Virus record (IMG/VR): IMGVR_UViG_3300012956_000001
Coordinates: 153,730-217,729 of that record
Length of the DNA stretch: 64,000 bases
From: a virus
Taxonomy: Duplodnaviria > Heunggongvirae > Uroviricota > Caudoviricetes
Direction: 5' to 3' (one strand)
The notes beneath the pieces were generated by a model. The model saw nothing but the letters and a program-made list of their open reading frames with translations, searched no databases and was not told where the DNA came from. This document shows positions 4,233 to 35,102 of this stretch, in pieces. How positions within the stretch are numbered: the stretch's first letter is position 1; the number at the start of each line of letters is the position of its first letter. The position numbers and the translations under genes are program-made.

Positions 4233-6454
4233 CATACAAAGGTATGACGGATCGGTTTGAAGAAAAAATGGATCGTCTCTACGGCAAATATTCTGCACGG
4301 GGTATCGATGGCGTAGGACAACCATTTTTAGAAATCAAGCCGAACGACCCGGACAGATCTAAAACAGCACACGACACACGATTGTCGCCGGGCCGATCAG
4401 CATCACTTGATCGATCACGTATTGCTGCATTCCTAAAGTCGCCAGCAGGCGTCAGATTCATGTTGAGTCAGGCAGAGTTACAGACAGGTAATACCTTCTC
4501 TGAAACTCGTCTGTACAATCCACTGTTTCCATTTGGACGATTAGATGCTAATTGGCTTCGTATTACTCGACCATTGGGCACTGCTCGTGGTGTAGGCGTA
4601 GGTGGTAACGGATCTACCAATATACTAGGAAGTGTGGTAAAGGGTTTGCTTACTGGTGATAATACCGTAGACCTTGCTGCACAAAAATCGCCTGGCTCTG
4701 ATGACAAGGTTGGTGGTGCTGGTAGACTTCAACGTGCAACATCACGTACGGTAGTAGATCGTGTAGTTGGTCGTAGTGGACCAACGGGACTATTAAACCT
4801 ACTACCACCAAACAAATTGACGCGTGTGGTCTCTGCCGTTAAGGGTGTACTAGAGACGGGCATATTAGATGTCAACGAACGACCAGAACTTGACATTGAT
4901 GGTCAATATTTTAGTATTGCACTATGGACAGGATTCTCACGAGTTCAGAAAGAACCAAATTCCTTTGTAAAGGCTGGTGCCGCTCTTCGTAAGGGTGATA
5001 TTGGTAGTGCATTGAGCAGCTTTGGCAGCGGTATAGTCAATACTATCAAAAAGAGCGTAGTCGGTACGAAGGGGTCGCCAATTCCAAACAAGGCAATAAC
5101 TGGAAGAAACGATCCCTCACGTACCGACTTAAGTGGTCTTCGATACTTCATTGTTAACAAGAATGATGCAGATCGATACTTACAAAATTCTATGCAAGGT
5201 ACACTTCCATCATTAGAATATTTGCATCGGTTGCCATATAAACTACAGGGCACTTCGCCGTTACTTACAAACACACCAAATACGTCTACAGCAACATCTG
5301 CTGCGGATAAACAAAAGCAAGTACAACGAGACACTGAGAAGAAAAAGAGCTTTCTTAGTAAGGTTGGTGGGTTTGTTAAGAGTGCCGCGACTATATTAAT
5401 TGGTGGTACCGCCAAGGCTGGTACAAACATTAACATCGGACCAACCGACCCAACCACAGGTCGATTGATTTCTGGTGCACAAACATCAAATCCGTTTGCA
5501 CAGAATCCTGCAGAAGAACGAATGTTGTTTGGTGAAATGTCACTAGGCAGCAAATACGAATCTGCCGATGGCGATGTAAAAGTATTTAAAGCCGATCTCG
5601 AAGAACAGACCAAGATATGGCAAGCTGACATTCGACAGCTTGTAACCGATAGAACCTATAATCTTGGATACGTCGGTGGTCTTACACCAGGCGTGAAGAT
5701 TGTTGACGATTTTGGTATCTTTGCATCCAAGAGAACAAAAGTTGACGGTGGCCGATACTTCAGCGACGGCGCTGCTGGATCGCCTGCAATTATGACCAAC
5801 AAAGAAAGTGATGTCGGCGGTAGAACGGTCAATGCAGATCTAAAAACAGAAATTCGTGACACATATAAGGATCTCATAGACTTCATGTTTCACGATTACG
5901 TTAACAATCAAGTCATTCCATTTAGAGCATCACTTACCCAGATTGCAGAATCAGTTACGGCAGATTTTGACGCACAACGATACATCGGACGTACAGAAAA
6001 GAATGTCGTATATGCTGGCGCTGGTAGAGAATTGACGTTTACGTTTTATGTACAAGCATATAGCAAAAAAGAGTTAGACTTTATTTGGAAAAAGATAAAC
6101 TATCTGACGGGTTTGTGTTTTCCAGCATCGTATGCTGATGGATTCATGGTTCCACCATTTGTACAATTGACCATCGGTAACTACTACGTCGATCAGCCAG
6201 GATACATTAAGAGCATCAATCACACAGTAGAAGATAATACATCATGGGACATTGATGTTGATGCACAAGTTCCTATGGGCATGACTATATCGGTAAGCTT
6301 CTCAGTAATAGAGAAGACACAGGTTCGAACAGGCTATAGCTTCTATGGCTATCCAGAACCGCCGCCGCGCACACAAGATAATCAGCCAGGATCACAGACC
6401 GTAGCAATTAATACAGCGGGCGTACCGTCTGCCACCGAACCGAGAACCGCATGA
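4229..6454 (+). CDS. tail/baseplate structural protein
   Basis: 741-aa ORF, ATGA overlap with tape measure stop; Gly/Thr-rich, no enzymatic motif recognised. Confidence 0.45.
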   Translation: MTYKGMTDRFEEKMDRLYGKYSARGIDGVGQPFLEIKPNDPDRSKTAHDTRLSPGRSASLDRSRIAAFLKSPAGVRFMLSQAELQTGNTFSETRLYNPLFPFGRLDANWLRITRPLGTARGVGVGGNGSTNILGSVVKGLLTGDNTVDLAAQKSPGSDDKVGGAGRLQRATSRTVVDRVVGRSGPTGLLNLLPPNKLTRVVSAVKGVLETGILDVNERPELDIDGQYFSIALWTGFSRVQKEPNSFVKAGAALRKGDIGSALSSFGSGIVNTIKKSVVGTKGSPIPNKAITGRNDPSRTDLSGLRYFIVNKNDADRYLQNSMQGTLPSLEYLHRLPYKLQGTSPLLTNTPNTSTATSAADKQKQVQRDTEKKKSFLSKVGGFVKSAATILIGGTAKAGTNINIGPTDPTTGRLISGAQTSNPFAQNPAEERMLFGEMSLGSKYESADGDVKVFKADLEEQTKIWQADIRQLVTDRTYNLGYVGGLTPGVKIVDDFGIFASKRTKVDGGRYFSDGAAGSPAIMTNKESDVGGRTVNADLKTEIRDTYKDLIDFMFHDYVNNQVIPFRASLTQIAESVTADFDAQRYIGRTEKNVVYAGAGRELTFTFYVQAYSKKELDFIWKKINYLTGLCFPASYADGFMVPPFVQLTIGNYYVDQPGYIKSINHTVEDNTSWDIDVDAQVPMGMTISVSFSVIEKTQVRTGYSFYGYPEPPPRTQDNQPGSQTVAINTAGVPSATEPRTA

Positions 6455-6729
6455 GCAATAGAGCACAGGCTAGATATACAACCAAGCTAGTAGAAAAAAA
6501 GCTTCCTGACGGTCGAACGGTGTATCAAACAGCAAAACCAAAGCCGATATCACCAGATATAGACGATATCATCATTACGGCCGATGAACGAGACCGATCT
6601 GATATCATTGCTAACAATGTATTCGGATCTGCCATGGAATGGTGGCGTATTGCTGCCGCCAACGGTCGTGTCGATGGAAGCTTGCACTTTACACCCGGAC
6701 AAAGAATCATCATTCCACGTAAGCGGTAA
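6451..6729 (+). CDS. LysM-like small tail protein (P2 gpX / T4 gp53-like fold)
   Basis: 92 aa; segment DIIANNVFGSAMEWWRIAAANGRVDGSLHFTPGQRIIIP resembles LysM peptidoglycan-binding motif; ATGA overlap with upstream gene. Confidence 0.5.
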   Translation: MSNRAQARYTTKLVEKKLPDGRTVYQTAKPKPISPDIDDIIITADERDRSDIIANNVFGSAMEWWRIAAANGRVDGSLHFTPGQRIIIPRKR

Positions 6730-6732
6730 TCC

Positions 6733-9700
6733 ATGTCAGACAAAGAAGAAGATCGTAGACCCTTTCCACAACTAAATTCATTCCGCCCTTGGACTAGTGC
6801 TGAATTAAAGAAGCGCCGAACAACATGGCCGACGCCAATTACCGCGCCATTTGTTCGTATGACTTCGTGCAATGAAGATACGTTCATTGGATACAAATAT
6901 TTCACACTTGGTTTGCACGGATTTGACGCGTCTAACGATACCAATCTCTTTGACCTGACATATGGTGCAAATAGAGACATTGTAGGGTATGCATATAAAG
7001 ATGGAAAGAAGACGCTCATCGATTCTACACAGATCAAGTATGTTACGCCCGACTTTAAAGACTTCAATAATTTGGCAGAAGACCACCCAAAGCGAAAGGC
7101 AGCGAACCAGCGAGTCCAACAGTCACAAGCATTGCAAGATCAAACAACTGCACTTGGCGCACACCCGATACCGGGTATTACGGCTGTTCAAGTCAAGCGA
7201 AGTGGTCTTGCCGCGCCGCTTATTGCCGAGGTTCGTTGGCAGTGTTACAACCAACAACAACTTGAATTTCTACGAAATCACTTTTTGGTGGTTGGTAGCT
7301 ATATTGTGCTGGAATGGGGTCACAAGTATCATGATAATGATAAGCGACCAAGTACAATCCTAGACTTTAACAGTGAAACCATTGAAGATACACTGACCGA
7401 AATTGTTGTTCGTGGACGAAAAGAAGTCATTGAAAAATTCTCACAACAAAATTCTGGAAATTACGACATTATAGTAGGTCAGGTTGGTAACTTTACCGTC
7501 GATATAGATCCAGCAACCAACATCTACAAGTGTAGCACGAGAATTGTATCTATTGGTGAAAACGTATGGGGCTTGAGTACTCAACAAACTGTTACTGTCA
7601 TTGAAAGCGGCAAAGACCCCAACAACGTTAACAGAATAAGTGACATACACAGTTATTTTGCACAAGGCGCTGGCTTTGATCAATTGTTGGGTAAGCTCGA
7701 AGCAACTTCTGCTGGTGCAAAATATGTTCGGCCACAACAAAAGGCATATGGCGAATCGGCACCCACGACAAATGAAACCGCTGAAGTAGGAGCAAATCCC
7801 AAGGATACTGCTTTCATTAGTTGGAAGGGATTTACCACCGATGTAGTTAATGACATCATAAAAATGTTTGATAACGTCAGTACGGATTCTACTACACAGG
7901 AGATGTACAACAAGCTAAAAACAGAACTTCGTGTATTGTTGACGCTCGGCGACGAACCAGACATCAATCTGTCACGACCAGAACTATACGATGAACAAAG
8001 AAAAATATATGACCGGGAGTGGATAGGCAATCATCCAGAATTGCGATCTATTGATCCCAATCTGTTAATCTTGATTACTCCCAAGGTTGCCGCCAATTCG
8101 CCTGCAACGGAATGGTTGGGCAATGGGTTGTTCGGTGAGGGTGCCCCAGATGAAAAACGTGCCAAGCTAAACAAGGGGTTGTGGATTAGCGCCGGATTGA
8201 TTCGTGATTCATTCTTACGAACCACCACCCTCCAAGCAGCAATACAACAGATCTTAAACGGCATGAATATTGCAGTTGGCGGCTATTGGCAGTTGCAATT
8301 GTTCTATGACGATGAAATTTCTGTGTATAAAATTATTGACTATAAGTTTGATGATACCGAAACGACACTCAAGACGCCGTTCTATGTATTTAACTCAAAT
8401 CAAAACGAACATCATAACGAAGTACTAGACATACAGTTCGATTCGGCGTTTCCGCCTGAGTTAATTACGCAGATGATGGTCGTTTCTATGATTCAAACGT
8501 CCACAGCTGAAGAACAGGCAGCGTATTTTGAAAAGTATCCAATGATCAACAATACTTCGCCATTTATGTTTGCGGTTAATTGGACATCATTGACCGATAT
8601 GTTGAAGAAGCGAATAACTGCACGTCGTAAAGAGTTTAGTGCGCCATTAGGTACTACGACATTAACCGTGTCTAAGGGAAATGAACAAAATGAGACCATC
8701 AATCTATCTCAGGGTAATCGAACGGGTGATATAGGCAACATTGGGCCACAGACGGGTAATACACCAACTGATTCTGCATCAGAAGGAACACCCAGAACGG
8801 TTATTGGATCATTGCCTAGTACACCAAAGGTTGAAGAGACGCCAACTGCTCCTGCGCCGCGAGGAACCGCCAAGCCGCCTACGAATCCAAATGAATTTGC
8901 ATTGACGCACAATCCACTGGATTCGATGACTATTACATCTGGGTTTGGTGCTCGATCTGCTCCGACGGCGGGCGCATCGAATGATCATCCTGGTCTGGAT
9001 ATTGCCACGCCACAGGGCACGCCGGTCAAAGCCGCCAGATCAGGCGTTGTTATTGACTCTGCATCAAACGTTAGAGGATACGGTGGTATTGTAAAAATCA
9101 TGCATAGTGATGGACACGAAACATGGTATGCACATCTAAGTAATACAACAATAGTAGAAAAAGGAGCATATGTTACTGGGGGTCAAACAATTGCACTATC
9201 TGGTGGTAGACCAGGCACCCCAGGCGCCGGAACATCTACTGGGCCACATTTACACTTTGAAGTACGATATAGGGGTGTTCCAAAGAATCCAAGCGATTCA
9301 TTATCTAAAGTGGGAACGCAACCCGCCAGACCAGATTCGCTGTTTGATAGATCTACAGCAATAATAATACCACCTGCTGCGTCAGATTCAACAAGCGGCT
9401 TTAAGGTATCAGCACCACAACAACCGCCAAGCAAGACCGAAGATCCTGCTGCTGTACAAAAGGCATTGGAGTATCAAAAGAAATTTGGTGATGACATCAT
9501 CAAGCTCATCCATCCAACAGCATCCATCTTACGTAACACCATTACGAAGCATGGATACGAAAATCTATCGGATACTATGATTAACGCATTTGTCTCGCCG
9601 TTTCCAACAACAACTTCGGTAGATGTACGTGTACAAGGTATAACTGGTATTAGCATTTCGGATGGATTCATGGTTGACAAATTGCCATTTATATTTGCTA

Positions 9701-26312: not shown

Positions 26313-26759
26313 ATGAAGCTATACATTCCGCGCATTGGCGAAATTATTGAACTGTCTGCCCCGTGGCAGTTCGACTTGTTTTATGAAAATCGCAATGAGA
26401 GCGTATGGATGAAACTTAATCTTCCACTTGCTATGCCTCAACCAGGCGGATTTAACTATTTTGGGGCAAGCACAGCATTTGATCCCACCGATATTACCGT
26501 ACATAATCTTACAATGATTCCTCGTGAGAAATTTCCACCCACATCATGGAACAGATATATTGTATCTGCACCAGTGGAGTTTCCGACCGGGACAAAACTT
26601 AGTATCGAAAAAATTCAAATTCGTAGAGGTATGCGCCAATTTGATTCTATTACATTTCGAGTTCAACCCGGCACCACACCCGGATTTGAAAAAGGCAAGC
26701 CTAAATTCTGGGCCAAACTAGATCAAGTAAATACTATGGAGTGTGTTGACCGTGTATAA
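26313..26759 (+). CDS. hypothetical protein
   Basis: 148-aa ORF, GAGGA RBS; 3' end overlaps ligase start. Confidence 0.4.
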   Translation: MKLYIPRIGEIIELSAPWQFDLFYENRNESVWMKLNLPLAMPQPGGFNYFGASTAFDPTDITVHNLTMIPREKFPPTSWNRYIVSAPVEFPTGTKLSIEKIQIRRGMRQFDSITFRVQPGTTPGFEKGKPKFWAKLDQVNTMECVDRV

Positions 26760-27861
26760 GATCATCCATTCGTCACCCGAACTTGTGTCCACCACCAGAA
26801 CTGGTAGTCAGAAGTTCTGGCAAGGTCATGTTGGTAATGATGGCTCGAAGTGGTACACCCAAACTTCATATTGGCAAGTCAACAAGGCTGGCAAAAAGTC
26901 ACTGGTCCAATTTTCTGATCCGTATGAAGCAACGGTCAAGAATGCCGGGCGCGCCAACGAAACTAATCCCGAACAACAAGCAAATTTTGAATTCACTAGT
27001 ATGGTTCAAAAACAACGTGACAAGGGCTACACCGAAGTTGGTGCGAAATCCACGGTATTGCCATTGCCTATGTTGGCAGAGAAGTTCAAGGATCGTGGTC
27101 ATAAGATTACGTGGCCTGCGTATGTACAACGTAAGTACAACGGTCAGAGAATGCTGTTTGATGGGTGGGTTGGCTGGTCACGGGGAGGCAAGTATATCAT
27201 CCCCGAGGTCATTCAACACCTAAAGAATGGAACCACACTCAATTATATTCTTGATGGTGAATTGATCCTGCCTAATAATCTCTTGTTGCAAGAGACAATG
27301 AAGGCATCAAAGAAATACACCAAGGGATTGTCTGATCAGCTTCTATATATCGTATATGATATCGTTATTCCTAACGAACCATTTAGCAAGCGATTGGAAA
27401 TTCTCAAAAAGCTTATGCCAACTATGCCTGCCAACGTTAAGCTGGCTGAGACATATTTGGTTCACGATGTTTCCGAAGTGGCTACTTATCAAAAGCAATT
27501 TACCGCCGCTGGATACGAAGGTACGATGATTCGTGACGATTCTGGTGGTTATGAGATTGGGCATCGGTCAAATCAGCTACAAAAGTTGAAGGACTTTGTA
27601 GACGCTGAATTTAAGATTGTCGGTGTCAATGAAGGATCGGGTCGTTTTGCCGGGGCCGCCATCTTCTCGTGTGACAACGGCTACGGACAACTCTTTGACT
27701 GTGTGCCCGAGGGCACAATGGAATATAAACGAGATTTGTTTAATACCCGTGACTCACTGATCGGTCAATGGTTGACCGTTCGATATCAAGAATTGTCTAA
27801 GGACAAGGTTCCGATCTTTCCTGTTGGTGTGACGATCCGAGACGAGGCAGACTTTAAATGA
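26743..27861 (+). CDS. ATP-dependent DNA ligase
   Basis: motif I RKYNGQRML (KxDG-type adenylation lysine), nucleotidyltransferase domain followed by OB domain; GTG/TTG start. Confidence 0.8.
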   Translation: MLTVYKIIHSSPELVSTTRTGSQKFWQGHVGNDGSKWYTQTSYWQVNKAGKKSLVQFSDPYEATVKNAGRANETNPEQQANFEFTSMVQKQRDKGYTEVGAKSTVLPLPMLAEKFKDRGHKITWPAYVQRKYNGQRMLFDGWVGWSRGGKYIIPEVIQHLKNGTTLNYILDGELILPNNLLLQETMKASKKYTKGLSDQLLYIVYDIVIPNEPFSKRLEILKKLMPTMPANVKLAETYLVHDVSEVATYQKQFTAAGYEGTMIRDDSGGYEIGHRSNQLQKLKDFVDAEFKIVGVNEGSGRFAGAAIFSCDNGYGQLFDCVPEGTMEYKRDLFNTRDSLIGQWLTVRYQELSKDKVPIFPVGVTIRDEADFK

Positions 27862-28145
27862 CCACATATCGTGACAATCTTGGACACTTTTATATTCCGC
27901 CTCATTTGTTGGAATTGTCTGAAAAGTACGTTCCAGAAAAGTCTACATACGATCAGGTGTTTTCGCCGGACGTTGGTCCGGCCGTATGGACGGTTGTAAA
28001 ATCATTCAAGGCATCAAAGGGAACCTCCACGCATACAGTTGAGCGTAAGGGAAATGAATTGAAGTGTTCATGTCAATCGTTTCGTATTCAAAAGATGGGT
28101 TCTTGCAAGCACACAGTTGCAGTTGCTGAGGAACTCGGCATCTAA
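27858..28145 (+). CDS. hypothetical protein with C/H cluster
   Basis: 95 aa; CSCQSF...CKH possible zinc site. Confidence 0.35.
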   Translation: MTTYRDNLGHFYIPPHLLELSEKYVPEKSTYDQVFSPDVGPAVWTVVKSFKASKGTSTHTVERKGNELKCSCQSFRIQKMGSCKHTVAVAEELGI

Positions 28146-28648: not shown

Positions 28649-29584
28649 ATGAGCAACGATACCCCTACAACGGATGTGGGCGTTATTATCGGTAGATTTC
28701 AAGTTCATCAGTTGCATGAAGCTCACATTGAGCTGATTGAGACGGTGAACAAGAAGCACGATAGGACGCTCATTTTTATTGGCCTGAGCCCACTCCGCAA
28801 CACCACCAGAAATCCTATGGACTTCAACACGCGTCGAAAGATGATTCTTGAATCATTTCCGCAGGTTGAAGTTTATTATATCGAAGATCATCGTAGTGAC
28901 GAAGTTTGGTCTGCCAACTTGGACCGAGAAATTACTAAGTGGTTGAAGCCCCACCAAACCGTCACACTCTATGGTAGTCGGGATAGTTTTATTTCGTCTT
29001 ATCATGGACGATACCAGACTGTTGAATTGCAGTCGAGCAAGATTATCTCTGGATCAGAAATCCGGCGGCGTATTTCGAATTCCTTTGAAAAGGATAAGTC
29101 GTATCGTGCCGGTGTGATTGCCGCGACATTTGATCGATATCCTACCAGTTACACGACCGTTGACATCGCAATCATAAACGAAAAGAATGAAGTTTTGCTG
29201 GGCAAGAAGCCCGGTGAGTTTGCTCTTCGATTCATCGGCGGATTCGCCAGCCCTGATTCCGACACATTCGAACAGGATGCTCGTCGTGAAGCAATGGAAG
29301 AAACTGGACTGAGCATTGATACTCTACGATATGTTGGATCGGCCAAGATCGATGACTGGCGGTACCGTGGTGAGATAGACAAAATCAAAACACTGTTCTT
29401 TGTAGGAAATTACATGTACGGTGCTCCCGAAGCAGGAGATGACATCGAATACGTGGAATGGGTAGATATGACGAGTCTGTTTTCTGGTAAGATTCACATT
29501 GTACCCGAACACATTCCGCTCGTTGTTATGCTCGGTGAATATGTGGGACAAAAGGCTTCGATTTTCAACAACAAAACCTCTTAG
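28649..29584 (+). CDS. bifunctional nicotinamide-nucleotide adenylyltransferase / Nudix hydrolase (NadM-Nudix type)
   Basis: N-terminal GVIIGRFQVHQLHEAH (cytidylyltransferase-fold HxGH-type motif), C-terminal Nudix box REAMEETGL. Confidence 0.7.
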   Translation: MSNDTPTTDVGVIIGRFQVHQLHEAHIELIETVNKKHDRTLIFIGLSPLRNTTRNPMDFNTRRKMILESFPQVEVYYIEDHRSDEVWSANLDREITKWLKPHQTVTLYGSRDSFISSYHGRYQTVELQSSKIISGSEIRRRISNSFEKDKSYRAGVIAATFDRYPTSYTTVDIAIINEKNEVLLGKKPGEFALRFIGGFASPDSDTFEQDARREAMEETGLSIDTLRYVGSAKIDDWRYRGEIDKIKTLFFVGNYMYGAPEAGDDIEYVEWVDMTSLFSGKIHIVPEHIPLVVMLGEYVGQKASIFNNKTS

Positions 29585-29607: not shown

Positions 29608-29910
29608 ATGACACCCGAAATCAGAACTATGGAAGAACAGGTACGAGAATTACAGAAGAAAATTGAATCTGCAAAAGCCGCTGAGTTGGAAGCAAATGAT
29701 CCGGCTAAAAAAGTTGCCGATTTGATCCATACCGTAACCTGTCACTCCAATCATGTCGATATGTGTGGCTGGGAGTATGAAAATTCAGAATCATATAAAA
29801 AGCCCGGTACCACTAGAAATCGATATTATGTTCGCGCACAAAAGCTTATTGTGAACGAAAATGTAAAGGAACTCATTCGTATTATCACCAAATTTCATTC
29901 AACCAGATAA
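29608..29910 (+). CDS. hypothetical protein between the two NAD salvage genes
   Basis: 100 aa, own copy of the repeated upstream element. Confidence 0.4.
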   Translation: MTPEIRTMEEQVRELQKKIESAKAAELEANDPAKKVADLIHTVTCHSNHVDMCGWEYENSESYKKPGTTRNRYYVRAQKLIVNENVKELIRIITKFHSTR

Positions 29911-29942: not shown

Positions 29943-31322
29943 ATGACAAATTCCATTATGACCACGAGCAACATTCTTCGTAGTGACTCATACAAGGTCA
30001 GTCACCACAAGCAATATCCAGAAGGCACCACAGGCATCTATTCGTATATGGAGAGCCGCGGCGGCGCATTCCCCGAAACAGTGTTCTTTGGTCTTCAATA
30101 TTACTTGAAGGAATATCTCTCCCGCCAGATCACAATGGCCGATGTAGATTATGCCGAACAACGTATGAACAAGCACCTTGGGCCCGGCATTTTCAATCGT
30201 GCTGGTTGGGAACGTATTGTGACCAAGCACAACGGCTATCTGCCTGTTCGTATTAAGGCGGCACCAGAGGGGTTGGTCATTCCTACGCGTAACGTATTGA
30301 TGACCATTGAGAATACCGATCCTGAGTTGCCGTGGGTTACCAATTATGTCGAGACAATGTTGCTGAAAACATGGTATCCCATTACGGTCGCCACCATTTC
30401 CCGCGAAATCAAAAAGCTGATTCACCGATATCTTGATGAAACAGGTGACGTTAGTGGCATCGATTTCAAGTTGCATGACTTCGGATATCGTGGTGTGAGC
30501 TCCGAGGAGTCGGCGGCTATTGGTGGTATGGCACACCTTGTCAACTTCAAGGGTACGGACACCATGATTGCCCTTGAAGCCGCTGATATCTACTACGGCG
30601 AGGATATGGCCGGATTCAGCATTCCTGCCGCAGAACACTCGACCATTACCGCATGGGGTCGTGAGTTTGAATATGAAGCATATCAAAACATGATTCAACA
30701 GTTTGGTAATGGCCCATTGTACGCCGTGGTCAGCGACTCCTACAACATCTATGATGCATGTGAAAAGTTGTGGGGTGGGTCGTTGAAGGCACAAGTACTT
30801 GCTGCACCGGGCACATTGGTCATTCGTCCTGACTCTGGTGTACCACATGAAGTGGTTCGTCAGATTACCGAAATTCTCGGCCGTCAGTTTGGTTATACAA
30901 CCAACGACAAGGGCTATAAGGTACTGAATAAGGTTCGTGTCATTCAGGGCGACGGCATCAACTACGAAGAAATTGGTCGCATCCTTGAAGCATTGAAGAT
31001 TCGTGGATGGAGTGCTGACAACGTGGCATTCGGCATGGGCGGTGCCCTACTTCAGCAGTCGAACCGAGACACACAGAAGTTTGCCATTAAGGCGTCGAGC
31101 ATGGTTCGTAATGATCGTATTCGTGATGTATGGAAAGATCCGGTCACGGACAACGGTAAGCGCTCTAAGCGTGGTCGGTTGAAGCTTGTGTGGAATAGTG
31201 GCGTATTGGAAACGGTGGAAGAACATCAGCCCGGCCACGATGTAATGCAAACGGTTTGGGAAAATGGTGAATTGTTGGTGGATCAGACGTTTGATACCAT
31301 CCGTGGATCGGCCAAAATTTAA
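29943..31322 (+). CDS. nadV: nicotinamide phosphoribosyltransferase (Nampt/NadV)
   Basis: 459 aa; N-terminal ILRSDSYKVSHHKQYP and overall type-II PRTase layout characteristic of NadV. Confidence 0.85.
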   Translation: MTNSIMTTSNILRSDSYKVSHHKQYPEGTTGIYSYMESRGGAFPETVFFGLQYYLKEYLSRQITMADVDYAEQRMNKHLGPGIFNRAGWERIVTKHNGYLPVRIKAAPEGLVIPTRNVLMTIENTDPELPWVTNYVETMLLKTWYPITVATISREIKKLIHRYLDETGDVSGIDFKLHDFGYRGVSSEESAAIGGMAHLVNFKGTDTMIALEAADIYYGEDMAGFSIPAAEHSTITAWGREFEYEAYQNMIQQFGNGPLYAVVSDSYNIYDACEKLWGGSLKAQVLAAPGTLVIRPDSGVPHEVVRQITEILGRQFGYTTNDKGYKVLNKVRVIQGDGINYEEIGRILEALKIRGWSADNVAFGMGGALLQQSNRDTQKFAIKASSMVRNDRIRDVWKDPVTDNGKRSKRGRLKLVWNSGVLETVEEHQPGHDVMQTVWENGELLVDQTFDTIRGSAKI

Positions 31323-31339
31323 AACGGGGGGCATGTAAT

Positions 31340-32014
31340 GTGTTGCAATTTCTTAAAGAATATCAACTAACTGAATCGTTTATTGTTGATGCAAGCAACG
31401 CGGCCTCGTGGCCATTAGATGTACTTAAACCTCTAGTAAGAACACATGAATCATTTGTGGCTGGTGGATACTTCAAAGATTTATTCAGTTCACCGCCCAA
31501 AGATCCTCGTGATATTGATGTGTATTTTTACAATCAAGAATCATTTGATCTAATGTATGATAAATTTAATGCGTCACCGGTATACAAAAAGAAGCACCGC
31601 GGTACAAATGCAATCGCATATGAACATATACCAACTGGACATAGTATTGATTTGGTAACTTCAATTTTTGGCAAGCCACAGGAAGTATTGCGGTCGTTTG
31701 ATTTTACTATAACTAAATGTGCATTAGTACAAAAATTTGGTGAATTTCATCTACTGATGCATGATCAGTTTATGGATCATGTCAACAACAAAGTTCTAAC
31801 TACAGATGCGTATATAGATGTAGGTGTGGATCTGACCTTTGAAGATTTAAATATTACCGCAGTAAAAGACATTGATTGTAATAAACTGTTCAATCGAATG
31901 ATAAAGTATACCTTGTATGGGTATAAGCCATCACACGAATTGAAGACACAACTATTTAGATCAATTAAAGTACAAAAGATCGACACAATTACACCAGTAA
32001 TTACAGAATATTGA
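31340..32014 (+). CDS. pol-beta-superfamily nucleotidyltransferase-like protein
   Basis: VAGGYFKDLFSSPPKDPRDIDVYF fits hG[GS]-x(9-13)-DhDh minimal nucleotidyltransferase motif; GTG start after GGGGGG. Confidence 0.4.
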   Translation: MLQFLKEYQLTESFIVDASNAASWPLDVLKPLVRTHESFVAGGYFKDLFSSPPKDPRDIDVYFYNQESFDLMYDKFNASPVYKKKHRGTNAIAYEHIPTGHSIDLVTSIFGKPQEVLRSFDFTITKCALVQKFGEFHLLMHDQFMDHVNNKVLTTDAYIDVGVDLTFEDLNITAVKDIDCNKLFNRMIKYTLYGYKPSHELKTQLFRSIKVQKIDTITPVITEY

Positions 32015-32020
32015 TACATC

Positions 32021-32050
32021 TAAACCACTCTTGATTTTAAGGGTGGTTTA
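32021..32050 (+). terminator. hairpin TAAACCAC-N14-GTGGTTTA
   Basis: 8-bp stem directly after stop. Confidence 0.45.
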
Positions 32051-32089
32051 GTGTATATTGGATCTTGTTCTTTTACCTCAGAGGAGTAC

Positions 32090-32809
32090 ATGAAAAAGAG
32101 TTTACTTGAACGGTTTATTTCGAAGTACAATCTAGCTGGTGCGGTTGACGGAGTTACGTGGACCGCTGATGCTACAGGCCTATCCACAGAATTTGTAAGT
32201 GACGACAAGCACGTTATCGGCAAGATCAAAACCCCAAACATTAAATTTGATGATGGCAAGTATTCCATCTATGAGACGAAGGCGTTTCGTAGTTTGTTGG
32301 GTGTCTTAGACGATGAGATTGCTGTGTCCGTCAATCTTACCAACAATAAGCCACGGTCTTTGTCCATTAAGGATGATTCTACAAAGGTGGCATTCGTTCT
32401 TGCAGACCCGGCCAACATTCCGGGTGTTGCTACTTTGAAGCAGTTGCCTACGTTTGAAAACGTTATCACCTTGGACAAGACATTTGTTGACCGATTCATT
32501 AAGTCAACTGGTGCATTGGTAGATGTAGAAACGTTCACGGTCTTGTCTGATGGCAAGAAGGCTGAGATTGTGGTTGGATACGACAATAACAACACCAATC
32601 GCGTAACACTCTCCGTCACTGGCACACAGCTACAGAAGTGTGATCCCATTGATTTCCATGCACGATACATGAAGGAAATTTTGATGGCGAATCGTGAAGC
32701 CACGAGCGGTAAGTTTGAAGTGGCCAACGCTGGACTAGCACGTATCACATTTGAAATTGAAGATTTCGAAGTTGTGTACTATCTTCCCGTGGTCAAGCGA
32801 GAGAACTAA
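32090..32809 (+). CDS. gp45: sliding clamp (T4 gp45-like), start placed at ATG 32090 after GAGGAG
   Basis: about 240 aa, two-domain beta-rich protein located in clamp/clamp-loader synteny upstream of gp44 and gp62 homologs. Confidence 0.55.
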   Translation: MKKSLLERFISKYNLAGAVDGVTWTADATGLSTEFVSDDKHVIGKIKTPNIKFDDGKYSIYETKAFRSLLGVLDDEIAVSVNLTNNKPRSLSIKDDSTKVAFVLADPANIPGVATLKQLPTFENVITLDKTFVDRFIKSTGALVDVETFTVLSDGKKAEIVVGYDNNNTNRVTLSVTGTQLQKCDPIDFHARYMKEILMANREATSGKFEVANAGLARITFEIEDFEVVYYLPVVKREN

Positions 32810-33982
32810 ATGAGTTTAGATCAGTTTTTTGATACACCACAATTTGATGTAGAGGCCGAGAAGGTTCGGTTTATCGAACACCTAGATCGCCTAAAAGCGA
32901 TGGATGTTCGTGAACAAACTCTATATCAGAAATGGTATGAATTGTCCACCGAATACAAGTGGGCATCAAACAAAGCATCCATCTTGAAGGCCAATATCTG
33001 GCGACCCACGAATATACAGGATCGTGACGGAACCATTGCCGAATTGAAGGCCCTTCGTCCTAGGCTGCGTTTTATCGAAAAGACTGATAAGAAGGGTATT
33101 GAGGATTGGCTCATTTATCGTGTATTGATGAGTACGTTTAACTTCGACCAAAATCCGGGCCGATTCCTCAGATTTCTCGTTGAAGATGAAGTAACGGACA
33201 AGGTGCTTGGTATTACGTCACTGGGCTCTGATGTCATTAACATTGGATGCCGTGACCGATATATTGGTTGGAATGAAACCGACAAGTTGGCGGGCATGTT
33301 GAATCACACTGCCATTGGCACAACCATTGTCGCAACTCAGCCATTCGGTTACAACTTCCTTGGTGGTAAGCTTATCGCTGCCTTACTTGTGACGCCTACC
33401 ATTCGAGACATTTGGAAGCGTGAATACGGCGAGACATTGGTGGGCATTACTACCACTTCGTTGTATGGCGACGGATCAATGTATAACAGCATTCCGTGGT
33501 GGAAGTCATTGGGTGAAACCACTGGTAAGATTCCATTGAAGCCCACGGATGAATACTACATGCCATGGCACGAGATCATCAAAACCAAATATCCAGAACA
33601 ATATGATAAGTTGTTGTGGAACGCTGTTGGTGGTCCGTCCACTGGCGTTAAACAGAAAATCATTAACGTGATTTTCAAAGAAGTGGGCGTCAAGCCATCA
33701 CAGTATGTACACGGTTTCAATCGTGGTGTCTACTTTGCTTCGTTGTACGAAAACACCAAAGAGTTTCTCCGTAAGGAAATCACCGATGCTGAATTGATAC
33801 CAATCAAGCGATCAACGTCGATGGACGCCGTTATGGAGTGGTGGACAAAGAAAGCCATTTCACGATACGAGAAGTTACATGCCGAAGATAGACTAAAGCC
33901 CGAAGTGTTGTTCTATAATGATGTAATGTTCCAAACATGGGACGAAACAAAAACCAAATATCTTGGTGAGGTTGGCCGATAA
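32810..33982 (+). CDS. hypothetical 390-aa protein inserted between clamp and clamp-loader genes
   Basis: no motif recognised; TAAATG overlap with clamp gene. Confidence 0.45.
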   Translation: MSLDQFFDTPQFDVEAEKVRFIEHLDRLKAMDVREQTLYQKWYELSTEYKWASNKASILKANIWRPTNIQDRDGTIAELKALRPRLRFIEKTDKKGIEDWLIYRVLMSTFNFDQNPGRFLRFLVEDEVTDKVLGITSLGSDVINIGCRDRYIGWNETDKLAGMLNHTAIGTTIVATQPFGYNFLGGKLIAALLVTPTIRDIWKREYGETLVGITTTSLYGDGSMYNSIPWWKSLGETTGKIPLKPTDEYYMPWHEIIKTKYPEQYDKLLWNAVGGPSTGVKQKIINVIFKEVGVKPSQYVHGFNRGVYFASLYENTKEFLRKEITDAELIPIKRSTSMDAVMEWWTKKAISRYEKLHAEDRLKPEVLFYNDVMFQTWDETKTKYLGEVGR

Positions 33983-34188
33983 TGTCATCAATACGAAAAA
34001 ACAAACGAATGTTATTCAATAGAGCATTTGGCCGTCGAAGTGCAAAGGAAGAACCACAAAACTTGCCGGCGATACCAAACCCAAATGCATATCCTGTTAG
34101 GCACAAGCCATTAGGCAGATCGTCGGGAAGTGTAGAGGGTGTTGCCGGGTGGCGGTCAAATTACTATAAATTGGATGAAATCAAATGA
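33982..34188 (+). CDS. small basic hypothetical protein
   Basis: 68 aa; overlaps flanking genes by 1 and 4 nt. Confidence 0.3.
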   Translation: MSSIRKNKRMLFNRAFGRRSAKEEPQNLPAIPNPNAYPVRHKPLGRSSGSVEGVAGWRSNYYKLDEIK

Positions 34189-35102
34189 ATCATAGTTTGT
34201 GGGTTGAACAATACAGACCAACCACACTTGACGATTACATTGGCAACGATGCTTTGAAGGCCAAGGTTGGTCGTATGATTGCAGATGGCGACATTCCACA
34301 TCTATTGTTGAGTGGTCCACCGGGCACGGGCAAGACGACTGTTGCTAAGATCATCGTCAAAAACATTGAGTGTGATTACCTATACATCAATGCATCAGAT
34401 GATAACAACGTCGAAACCGTCCGTACTAAGATCAAGTCATTCGCATCTACCATCGGCTTCAAGCCAATGAAGATCATTATCTTGGACGAGGCAGATTACA
34501 TCACGATCAACGGCCAGGCTGCTCTCCGTAACATCATGGAGACGTTCTCACGGACCACGCGGTTTATCCTAACATGTAACTTCGTGGAACGAATCATTGA
34601 TCCGATTGTCAGTCGTACACAACAGTTTCATGTTGTACCACCGACTAAAATCGATGTTGCCAAGCACGTTGCTGGTCTTTTGAAAAAGGAAGATGTGAGT
34701 TATCAACCAACCGATGTGAAGTTGTTGGTGGATGCCCATTATCCCGATATTCGAAAAATCATTAATGAAGCCCAATTGAACACGATGAACGGTCAACTGA
34801 CCATTGATGCTGAAGAAGTCGTGTCGAGCGACATCAAGTTGAAGGTGGTTGAGTTGCTCGGTCAGAAGGGCGATGCAAAGAAACGATTCCAAGATATTCG
34901 TCAATTGGTTGCCGATGCTGGCATTCGAGACTTTTCGGACATGTATACGCTTCTATACGAGAAGGTCGATCAGTATGGCAAGAGTCATGTGAGTCAAGTC
35001 ATCTTGCATATTGCTGAAGGTCAGAAATATGATGGTCAGGTAGTGAATAAAGAAATCAACATGATGAGCACAATCATCAACATACTTCAAACCATAGGAT
35101 AA
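34185..35102 (+). CDS. gp44: clamp loader large subunit, AAA+ (T4 gp44 / RFC-like)
   Basis: EQYRP...LLLSGPPGTGKTT Walker A, IIILDEAD Walker B, SRT/SRC-like sensor (VSRTQ). Confidence 0.9.
   Translation: MNHSLWVEQYRPTTLDDYIGNDALKAKVGRMIADGDIPHLLLSGPPGTGKTTVAKIIVKNIECDYLYINASDDNNVETVRTKIKSFASTIGFKPMKIIILDEADYITINGQAALRNIMETFSRTTRFILTCNFVERIIDPIVSRTQQFHVVPPTKIDVAKHVAGLLKKEDVSYQPTDVKLLVDAHYPDIRKIINEAQLNTMNGQLTIDAEEVVSSDIKLKVVELLGQKGDAKKRFQDIRQLVADAGIRDFSDMYTLLYEKVDQYGKSHVSQVILHIAEGQKYDGQVVNKEINMMSTIINILQTIG

Follow-up and report, generated by a model that had tools for sequence, protein, structure and literature searches.

The window, by which we mean the whole 64-kb stretch of phage DNA that was analysed, has a GC content of 42.9%, and all but one of its 75 ORFs (those picked at a length of at least 80 aa) lie on the plus strand. 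The gene studied here, which encodes a nucleotidyltransferase (NTase) of 224 aa, has the following setting:

26743–27861, plus strand: ATP-dependent DNA ligase
27858–28145, plus strand: SWIM zinc-finger protein
28649–29584, plus strand: NMNAT-Nudix protein (cytidylyltransferase-like/Nudix, NatV-like), upstream of NadV
29943–31322, plus strand: NAMPT (NadV), the upstream neighbour, 459 aa (Pfam NAMPT_N, 3.3e-31, and NAPRTase, 2.5e-56; phrog_448, 1.2e-163)
31340–32014, plus strand: NTase gene assigned to the Gad2 family, 224 codons, GTG start, stop codon ending at 32014
32020–32051, plus strand: terminator-like hairpin with a 14-bp stem, in the 75-nt gap between the NTase gene and the sliding-clamp gene
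32051–32809, plus strand: sliding-clamp-like protein
32810–33982, plus strand: DruA-like protein
34185–35102, plus strand: clamp loader

The ORF at 31340–32014 is a real gene. A 100% identical copy of its product (P0001) is called on the 217,729-bp JGI contig, and a relative with ~50–53% identity (P0002) is encoded on a sister contig of 197,464 bp (L008). The 224-aa protein is matched by phrog_4400 with an E-value of 2.1e-26 and by 96 phage records in tblastn, an exhaustive HMMER search returned 557 cluster representatives at E ≤ 1e-3, and relatives are encoded in 481 IMG/VR stretches; with this many identical and related proteins, the reading frame is not a chance ORF. The gene lies directly downstream of NAD salvage genes, as the initial annotation had described: it starts after a 17-nt gap from the stop codon of NadV, which itself follows the NatV-like gene. 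No terminator-like site was found in the gap between NadV and the NTase gene, and because this gap is so short and the hairpin comes only after the NTase gene, the two genes are probably co-transcribed, as far as the sequence can tell. On the far side, the clamp product of the sister contig is 239 aa long, and the ATG start of the window clamp is therefore placed at about 32090. The DruA-like gene lies one gene beyond the clamp, downstream of the NTase gene. The pair TAGATA-N16-TACAAT was considered as a phage promoter consensus and rejected, as it proved to be a 28-nt duplication flanking an inserted ORF.

Megablast found no match for the region among 50,697 phage records, which makes the phage new at the level of DNA. 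Its clamp loader reaches at best 49% identity, to the clamp loader of an uncultured 484-kb phage; the counterpart in Microcystis phage Mel-JY01 shares 42%. The genome belongs to a novel uncultured jumbo phage whose replication core is T4-like. No tRNA genes were detected when the whole window was scanned, and an RNA ligase like that of a related 124-kb contig (L010) was not found in the window.

To describe the protein we use the features below; conservation is counted over 242 aligned relatives, which include both verified Gad2 N-terminal domains.

31451–31528, plus strand: motif A, residues 38–63, SFVAGGYFKDLFSSPPKDPRDIDVYF, with the h-G-G turn and the DxD metal-binding carboxylates D58 and D60
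31649–31651, plus strand: D104, candidate third acidic residue, in strand 101–110 of the model; E or D in 228/242
31697–31717, plus strand: motif-B-like block F120-D121-F122-T-I-T-K126, in place of the RRDxTIN of CCA-adding enzymes
31811–31870, plus strand: lineage-specific insertion, about residues 158–177, with 17 residues gapped in the sister allele P0002; pLDDT 52–61
31895–31921, plus strand: neck-helix motif R186-M-I-K189-Y190-T-L-Y193-G194, aligned by HMMER to E. coli Cca neck residues 142–165
32009–32011, plus strand: C-terminal tyrosine Y224, the last residue, in a flexible tail (pLDDT 48–64); Y in 230/242

The nucleotidyltransferase signature consists of G42-G43, a spacer of 14 residues (YFKDLFSSPPKDPR) and D58-I-D60-V; the motif reported in the initial annotation is thus real, with its spacer one residue longer than the 13 given there. 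Both glycines are nearly invariant (G42 in 240/242 and G43 in 241/242 relatives), position 46 is K or R in 238/242, and F63 is kept in 237/242. The two motif aspartates, whose conservation in homologues the initial annotation had made a test of its reading, are retained in 240/242 (D58) and 242/242 (D60). Motif A aligns to motif A of human TRNT1 (family profile, E-value of 0.0019) and to motif A of E. coli Cca. Further along, F120, D121, F122 and K126 occur in 241, 242, 240 and 215 of the 242 relatives, respectively, their correspondence to motif B having been assigned by inspection against E. coli Cca. The neck-helix motif is equally well kept, with R186 in 240/242, K or R at position 189 in 240/242, Y190 in 235/242, Y193 in 224/242 and G194 in 238/242. 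D104 is possibly catalytic; the position holds Q in 13 relatives, the two verified Gad2 proteins among them. As Gad2 has Gln at a position that is E or D in 94% of the family, the catalytic chemistry may differ between the verified Gad2 proteins and the 224-aa protein. The equivalent of Y224 lies within a terminal LYxGxD motif in most relatives, and the verified Gad2 proteins have MYGIN(Y/L)D at the equivalent place, followed by an extra domain. The preservation of these residues suggests that the 224-aa protein is probably an active enzyme.

An AlphaFold model built from a 91-sequence alignment had a pLDDT of 83.7 and a pTM of 0.80, compared with a pLDDT of only 40.7 from a 2-sequence alignment. 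Structure comparison with this model confirmed the proposed pol-beta-superfamily fold and placed it close to class II enzymes: the structural score was highest for the Thermotoga CCA-adding enzyme (3h37_A, 14.7, 184 residues aligned), followed by an A-adding enzyme (4wby_A, 13.8), the bacterial poly(A) polymerase (3aql_A, 12.8) and the class II enzymes 3wfo_A (12.0), 1miv_A (11.9), 9kma_A (11.3) and 1ou5_A (9.1). Lower scores were obtained for the terminal nucleotidyltransferase TENT5B (8.7) and for a 191-residue protein deposited as 'CCA-adding enzyme head domain' (2la3_A, 8.6). The model has the pol-beta head, the GG turn, the DxD carboxylates and the helical neck that characterize class II. 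It thus depicts the 224-aa protein as the stand-alone head and neck of a class II pol-beta NTase of the CCA-adding/poly(A) polymerase type; at only 224 residues, the protein is too short to contain the tRNA-holding body and tail domains. The initial annotation had leaned towards the CD-NTase/OAS group, an assignment that gives way to this CCA-adding type of head and neck, as neither a cGAS/DncV-type fold nor a match to a CD-NTase sequence model was found.

The sequence signals agree with a class II assignment but are weak. Pfam PolyA_pol (PF01743) did not match the 224-aa protein at E ≤ 10; it matched 30/69 relatives weakly at E ≤ 1 (best E-value, 8.9e-5), and for a fusion relative (P0048) the score of 21.8 bits fell below the cut-off of 23. 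When the family was compared by hhalign with E. coli Cca as a single sequence, only motif A aligned, at a probability of 0.7%; a local HMM search with Cca picked up two weakly similar, colinear patches. Neither result is strong enough to map the motifs residue by residue. In class II enzymes, motif B 'RRD' and motif D 'EDxxR' serve in ribose and base selection. In place of 'RRD' the family has the invariant F120-D121-F122, and no 'EDxxR' was recognizable by inspection upstream of the R186..K189-Y190 block; the registration, which comes from inspection and a weak HMM alignment, is uncertain. The 224-aa protein is not a strict member of the CCA-adding/poly(A) polymerase family, because it falls short of the Pfam threshold, shows neither motif B nor motif D, and lacks the body and tail as well as a tRNA context. 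The conserved tyrosine-containing tail that closes the domain is a further departure from canonical CCA-adding enzymes.

The family to which the protein does belong is Gad2. PF26128.2 is recorded on the identical copy, on the sister protein and on every match listed, and a contig look-up names this model 'Gad2'; the family is thus already catalogued, and the earlier idea of an uncharacterized family no longer holds. A local Pfam hmmscan of the 224-aa protein gave no match, and nor did either of the two verified Gad2 sequences in the same local copy, which indicates that this copy lacks the PF26128 model and that the two results do not contradict each other. BLASTP against the verified Brevibacillus laterosporus Gad2 (394 aa) gave 25% identity over 130 aa (E-value of 1e-9), and hhalign of the family alignment against the same protein gave a probability of 98% and an E-value of 2.5e-13 over 157 columns, covering Gad2 residues 22–180 (Gad2 sequences from the supplement of 10.1101/2023.05.01.538930). 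NCBIfam and PADLOC gave no match for the 224-aa protein, and a PDB search with the single sequence returned chance kallikrein matches only. With the profile and structural evidence combined, we are highly confident that the protein is a class II-type NTase of the Gad2 family.

What the 224-aa protein shares with Gad2 is the catalytic half. It ends at the equivalent of about Gad2 residue 200, and so does not have the full Gad2 architecture, in which about 200 aa of C-terminal domain follow the NTase; this second half is likewise missing from the relatives, as BLASTP matches beyond Gad2 residue 170 were found in 0/263 of those collected. The family members listed are mostly 185–270 aa long, and in the larger fusions (440–590 aa) the additional parts contained no recognizable Pfam domain and in no case the Gad2 C-terminal domain. 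Judged from these sequences, the short catalytic-only form appears to be the commonest in the Gad2 family. As the family is catalogued and the phenotype of one member is known, the protein is a new family member rather than a new kind of enzyme; what is new here is the assignment of the fold class, the dominance of the short catalytic-only form and the hotspot behaviour described below.

The sister contig has the same gene order as the window, and the genes around the NTase are strongly conserved between the two: protein identity is 94.6% for the ligase, 96.8% for NatV, 97.4% for NadV, 95.6% for the clamp, 98.2% for the DruA-like protein and 99.0% for the clamp loader. Overall, the conserved neighbours are 92–99% identical in protein, compared with about 53% for the NTase. 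At the DNA level, identity is about 0.9 and falls to 0.56–0.71 exactly within 31296–31989, the lowest value (0.37) belonging to a single 100-nt bin that contains an indel, and it is back to 0.96 from 31990. The NTase gene has a dN of 0.357, a dS of 1.12 and a dN/dS of 0.32, against 0.006–0.047, 0.18–0.68 and 0.011–0.123, respectively, in ten conserved neighbours, ranges that leave out the small ORF at 33982–34188, which is as divergent as the NTase gene. As dS is also about twofold above that of the neighbours, the fast divergence could reflect relaxed constraint or replacement of the allele by recombination. The divergence within the protein is a mosaic, in which the catalytic blocks are conserved and the segments between the motifs are variable: blocks 28–63, 103–139 and 178–206 are 83%, 73% and 76% identical to the sister protein, whereas segments 1–27, 64–102 and 140–177 are 19%, 28% and 18% identical, with a 17-residue indel inside the last of these. 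By its sequence pattern, the NTase gene behaves like an accessory gene in an arms race.

A similar picture emerges from the distribution of the gene. In Streptococcus thermophilus phages it sits between the exonuclease and SSB genes, and it is absent between exonuclease–SSB flanks of 91–94% identity in P5641, CHPC1014, CHPC952, CHPC1062, CHPC926, P7951 and CHPC663, as well as in S. salivarius phage SA-TP2, whose flanks are 86% identical; in 7A5, B5, STP1, 7T, V2 and SW9 it has other flanks. Across the family, the following contexts (X, the NTase gene) were found:

RecT–nuclease–X–SSB
ERF–X–SSB
PD-(D/E)XK-type DUF3799–X
dCMP hydroxymethylase and dUTPase genes
between the genes for ribonucleotide reductase subunits
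in gut phages, PAPS-reductase-like, MazF-like, radical SAM and methylase genes
adjoining a YonV_C protein

NadV is near the gene in only 3/95 related loci, namely two contigs of the window lineage (the sister contig and L009) and the 124-kb contig, in which the NAD genes are in a rearranged order and the NTase and NadV are 31% and 62% identical to those of the window; it was found within the flanks of 0/80 IMG/VR loci. The functional link to the NAD module that had been read from the adjacency in the window is therefore not borne out. Given the presence/absence pattern, the varied flanks and the rare linkage to NAD genes, the gene is a constant component of neither the NAD pathway nor the recombination machinery; it is an accessory cassette, mobile and evolving fast, of regions for early replication, recombination or DNA modification.

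Several lines of published work bear on what such a cassette may do. Gad2 of phage SPbetaL7 is a 400-aa protein whose deletion leaves the phage fully sensitive to Gabija, and its B. laterosporus homologue abolishes Gabija; AlphaFold predicted an NTase domain in Gad2, and SPbetaL7 Gad2 is toxic on overexpression (10.1101/2023.05.01.538930). The Gad2-family protein gp22 of phage Emajogi is also toxic on overexpression. Gabija reportedly acts at phage DNA ends without RecBCD activity and blocks genome circularization. According to a review of February 2026, the mechanism of Gad2 is still not elucidated, so that to say a protein 'works like Gad2' specifies no reaction. The anti-defence leaning of the initial annotation nevertheless gains support from the family of verified anti-Gabija Gad2. 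We read the 224-aa protein as a stand-alone, active counter-defence NTase of the Gad2 family, and give this overall reading about even odds (roughly 0.5). The counter-defence role taken by itself is, in our analysis, evenly balanced as well, and a specifically anti-Gabija role is suggested only tentatively.

According to this counter-defence reading, an NTP and two metal ions would be bound in the cleft between head and neck by D58, D60 and possibly D104, and the nucleotide would be transferred, untemplated, onto an acceptor hydroxyl. The acceptor would most likely be a DNA or RNA 3′-OH end, with DNA ranked somewhat above RNA, and less likely a protein or small molecule. It would probably not be a whole tRNA measured in the canonical manner, since neither the domains that dock tRNA nor the selectivity motifs of CCA-adding enzymes are present. 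A reaction at nucleic-acid 3′ ends combined with counter-defence is ranked likeliest because Gabija acts at DNA ends and the neighbours are recombination, ligase and DNA-modification genes; that the enzyme may act on cellular molecules would fit the toxicity of SPbetaL7 Gad2 and Emajogi gp22. As the product of an accessory gene, transcribed with NadV within an immunity-evasion cluster, the enzyme would weaken Gabija or another nuclease-type defence and would play no part in making NAD. A point against this reading is the missing second half of Gad2, which could carry the specificity for Gabija or another target. A more daring and rather doubtful proposal is that the head–neck module suffices for counter-defence, with untemplated nucleotides, added to the 3′ ends of phage genome DNA or of recombination intermediates, or to the end of some other nucleic acid, hiding these ends from defences that, like Gabija, read free DNA ends; if true, a tRNA-enzyme fold would have been repurposed for immune evasion by end masking, and the missing mechanism of Gad2 would be supplied.

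Other functions are conceivable for a protein of this fold. One is an RNA 3′-end enzyme, either a minimal tRNA CCA-repair enzyme or a poly(A)/tailing enzyme, which might repair tRNAs cut by host nucleases at the anticodon or acceptor end, or tail host RNA for faster decay. We consider it unlikely, as the tRNA-binding body and tail are missing (224 aa, compared with 372–517 in the six PDB enzymes that match best), inspection showed 'xFD' in place of 'RRD' and no 'EDxxR', and the 224-aa protein obtains no Pfam PolyA_pol score at all. The lack of tRNA genes in the window and the frequency of the family in 30–40-kb Streptococcus phages beside recombination genes also argue against such an enzyme, and a conserved housekeeping enzyme for tRNA would not be expected to differ so much between sister phages (53% identity). 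The repeated placement between recombinase or exonuclease and SSB genes speaks for a DNA-end terminal transferase in phage recombination or replication, for instance one that prepares 3′ ends for the SSAP/exonuclease/SSB or the ligase without inhibiting any defence, and the ATP-dependent DNA ligase and the clamp and clamp-loader genes nearby in the window, the sister contig and the 124-kb contig point in the same direction. Such a role is nonetheless improbable in our view: the gene is dispensable, being missing from exonuclease–SSB modules that are 91–94% identical, its dN is 8–60 times that of the adjacent replication genes, and a verified member of the family inhibits defence.

The immediate neighbours in the window raise a different possibility, that of a third NAD-salvage enzyme that would, for example, adenylylate a pyridine nucleotide. 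The 17-nt gap after NadV without an intervening terminator-like site speaks for it, as does the linkage to NUDIX and NAMPT genes, which recurs in the sister contig and L009 and is rearranged in the 124-kb contig; the rarity of NadV near the gene elsewhere (3/95 related and 0/80 IMG/VR loci), the NMNAT function already provided by the adjacent cytidylyltransferase-like/Nudix protein and the 97% identity of NadV and NatV between sister phages, compared with 53% for the NTase, leave it with a very slight chance. A CD-NTase/OAS-like function, in which a nucleotide immune signal is made or destroyed to give anti-CBASS or anti-Thoeris activity, had been suggested from the NAD neighbours and the GG...DxD signature, which is generic and common to all pol-beta NTases; given the fold and model results above, we regard this as the least credible reading. 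There is a small chance of a toxin-like NTase in the style of MenT or AbiEii, acting in host shut-off or superinfection exclusion, for which we found neither a close structural or sequence match nor a cognate antitoxin partner. An antibiotic NTase was set aside, as the protein resembles such enzymes far less than it does class II enzymes and there is no resistance context.

We therefore return to a counter-defence NTase of the Gad2 family as the preferred reading. Because a divergence hotspot with conserved catalytic blocks adjoins NAD-reconstitution genes and lies near a DruA-like gene, the stretch is probably, on this sequence evidence, a counter-defence cluster in an uncultured jumbo phage. 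Gabija is a defence very common among bacteria, and Gad2 is one of the few enzymes that inhibit it; assigning the catalytic domain of Gad2 to the class II head–neck type narrows the chemistry to untemplated transfer onto an acceptor hydroxyl. As most of the family are module-only proteins of about 200 aa, a small, tractable enzyme is available for biochemistry. The labels 'CCA tRNA nucleotidyltransferase', 'polyA polymerase' and CD-NTase are all misleading for Gad2-family proteins, and annotations that carry them should be read with caution.

Finally, we compared the 224-aa protein with characterized NTases. Its similarity to MenT-type toxins, LnuA and ANT(2″) is far weaker than to class II enzymes, and the locus has no toxin–antitoxin or resistance context. 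NP_344798.1 (2la3_A), with 191 residues, has a lower structural score than the full CCA enzymes, and the family profile finds no sequence match to it at E ≤ 10. The class II CCA- and A-adding enzymes (3h37/5hc9 from Thermotoga maritima, 4wby, 1miv and 1ou5) are 12–19% identical to the 224-aa protein and have the body and tail domains, 'RRD' and 'EDxxR', which the latter lacks (motifs judged by inspection); PcnB (3aql) likewise has additional RNA-binding body and leg domains. Gad2 differs in being longer (394–400 aa), the additional C-terminal domain measuring about 200 residues, and in a Gln at the position of D104, and it is only for this long form that the anti-Gabija phenotype has been shown. 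Gad2 of SPbetaL7 and of the B. laterosporus prophage and the 224-aa protein are nevertheless alike in being encoded by phages or prophages and in their homologous N-terminal NTase domain, with the AGG...D(I/V/L)D, FDFT and R..KY motifs and a domain-terminal Y-G-x-x-D motif common to both.

Between the NMNAT-Nudix gene NatV (28649-29584) and the NAMPT gene NadV (29943-31322), we found a short ORF that is bracketed by two near-identical direct repeats and has no counterpart in the contig of the sister phage (L008).

29582-29609 and 29917-29944: direct repeats of 28 nt, TAGATACAAGATATAGGAGAA[A/T]TACAAT
29608-29910: ORF of 100 aa, phrog_12218

Each copy of the repeat contains a ribosome-binding site and extends into a start ATG. 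The ORF looks like a small gene cassette that entered the NatV-NadV interval through a duplication of the leader of NadV.

The comparison with the sister phage showed further sites of divergence in the window, of which the following were the second and third.

33982-34188 (+): ORF of 68 aa, flanked by the DruA-like and clamp loader genes
26333-26629: divergent stretch inside a 148-aa ORF (26313-26759), upstream of the ligase gene

The product of the 68-aa ORF is only 57% identical to its sister protein, with a dN of 0.35, while the adjoining genes are at 98-99%; the third stretch has 54-66% DNA identity to the sister contig. Pfam searches returned no match for either the 68-aa or the 148-aa ORF. 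The sister contig also carries an additional ORF of 193 aa, inserted between the ligase and SWIM genes (at about 27839-27847 of the window). The SWIM gene itself, which separates the DNA ligase gene from the NAD genes, is 92% conserved at the protein level in the sister phage.

27858-28145 (+): SWIM zinc-finger protein, 95 aa (Pfam E-value 4.2e-4, just above the cut-off)

On the other side of the NAD genes, the sliding-clamp gene is the only gene that separates the Gad2-like nucleotidyltransferase gene (31340-32014, +) from a DruA-like gene downstream, whose product is 98% identical between the window and the sister phage.

32810-33982 (+): DruA-like protein, 390 aa (Pfam DruA, 8.5e-26; phrog_19197, 2.4e-35)

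DruA is a defence protein of the Druantia system. Encoded by a jumbo phage of the lytic type, such a component of a defence system could serve as a decoy, or it could have been hijacked.

Elsewhere in the family, the Gad2-like gene has different neighbours. Loci L042-L092 belong to a lineage of human-gut phages in which the gene immediately upstream codes for a MazF/PemK-like toxin (4.4e-23) and the one immediately downstream is a radical-SAM gene, with PAPS-reductase-like and N6/N4 methylase genes close by; the sites noted in L046 are 5423-5959 and 6703-7224. Nine family members of 440-590 aa (P0033, P0048, P0060, P0078, P0081, P0106, P0135, P0139, and P0148) are fusion proteins that join a Gad2-type nucleotidyltransferase domain to extra regions, in which neither a Pfam family nor the Gad2 C-terminal domain was found.

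Finally, we compared the window protein with the verified anti-Gabija Gad2 proteins at the position of its residue D104. Of the 242 family members, 228 have Glu or Asp here, the window protein among them, but both verified proteins (SPbetaL7 and B. laterosporus) have Gln. The catalytic centre of these two proteins may therefore be unlike the one in the short forms.
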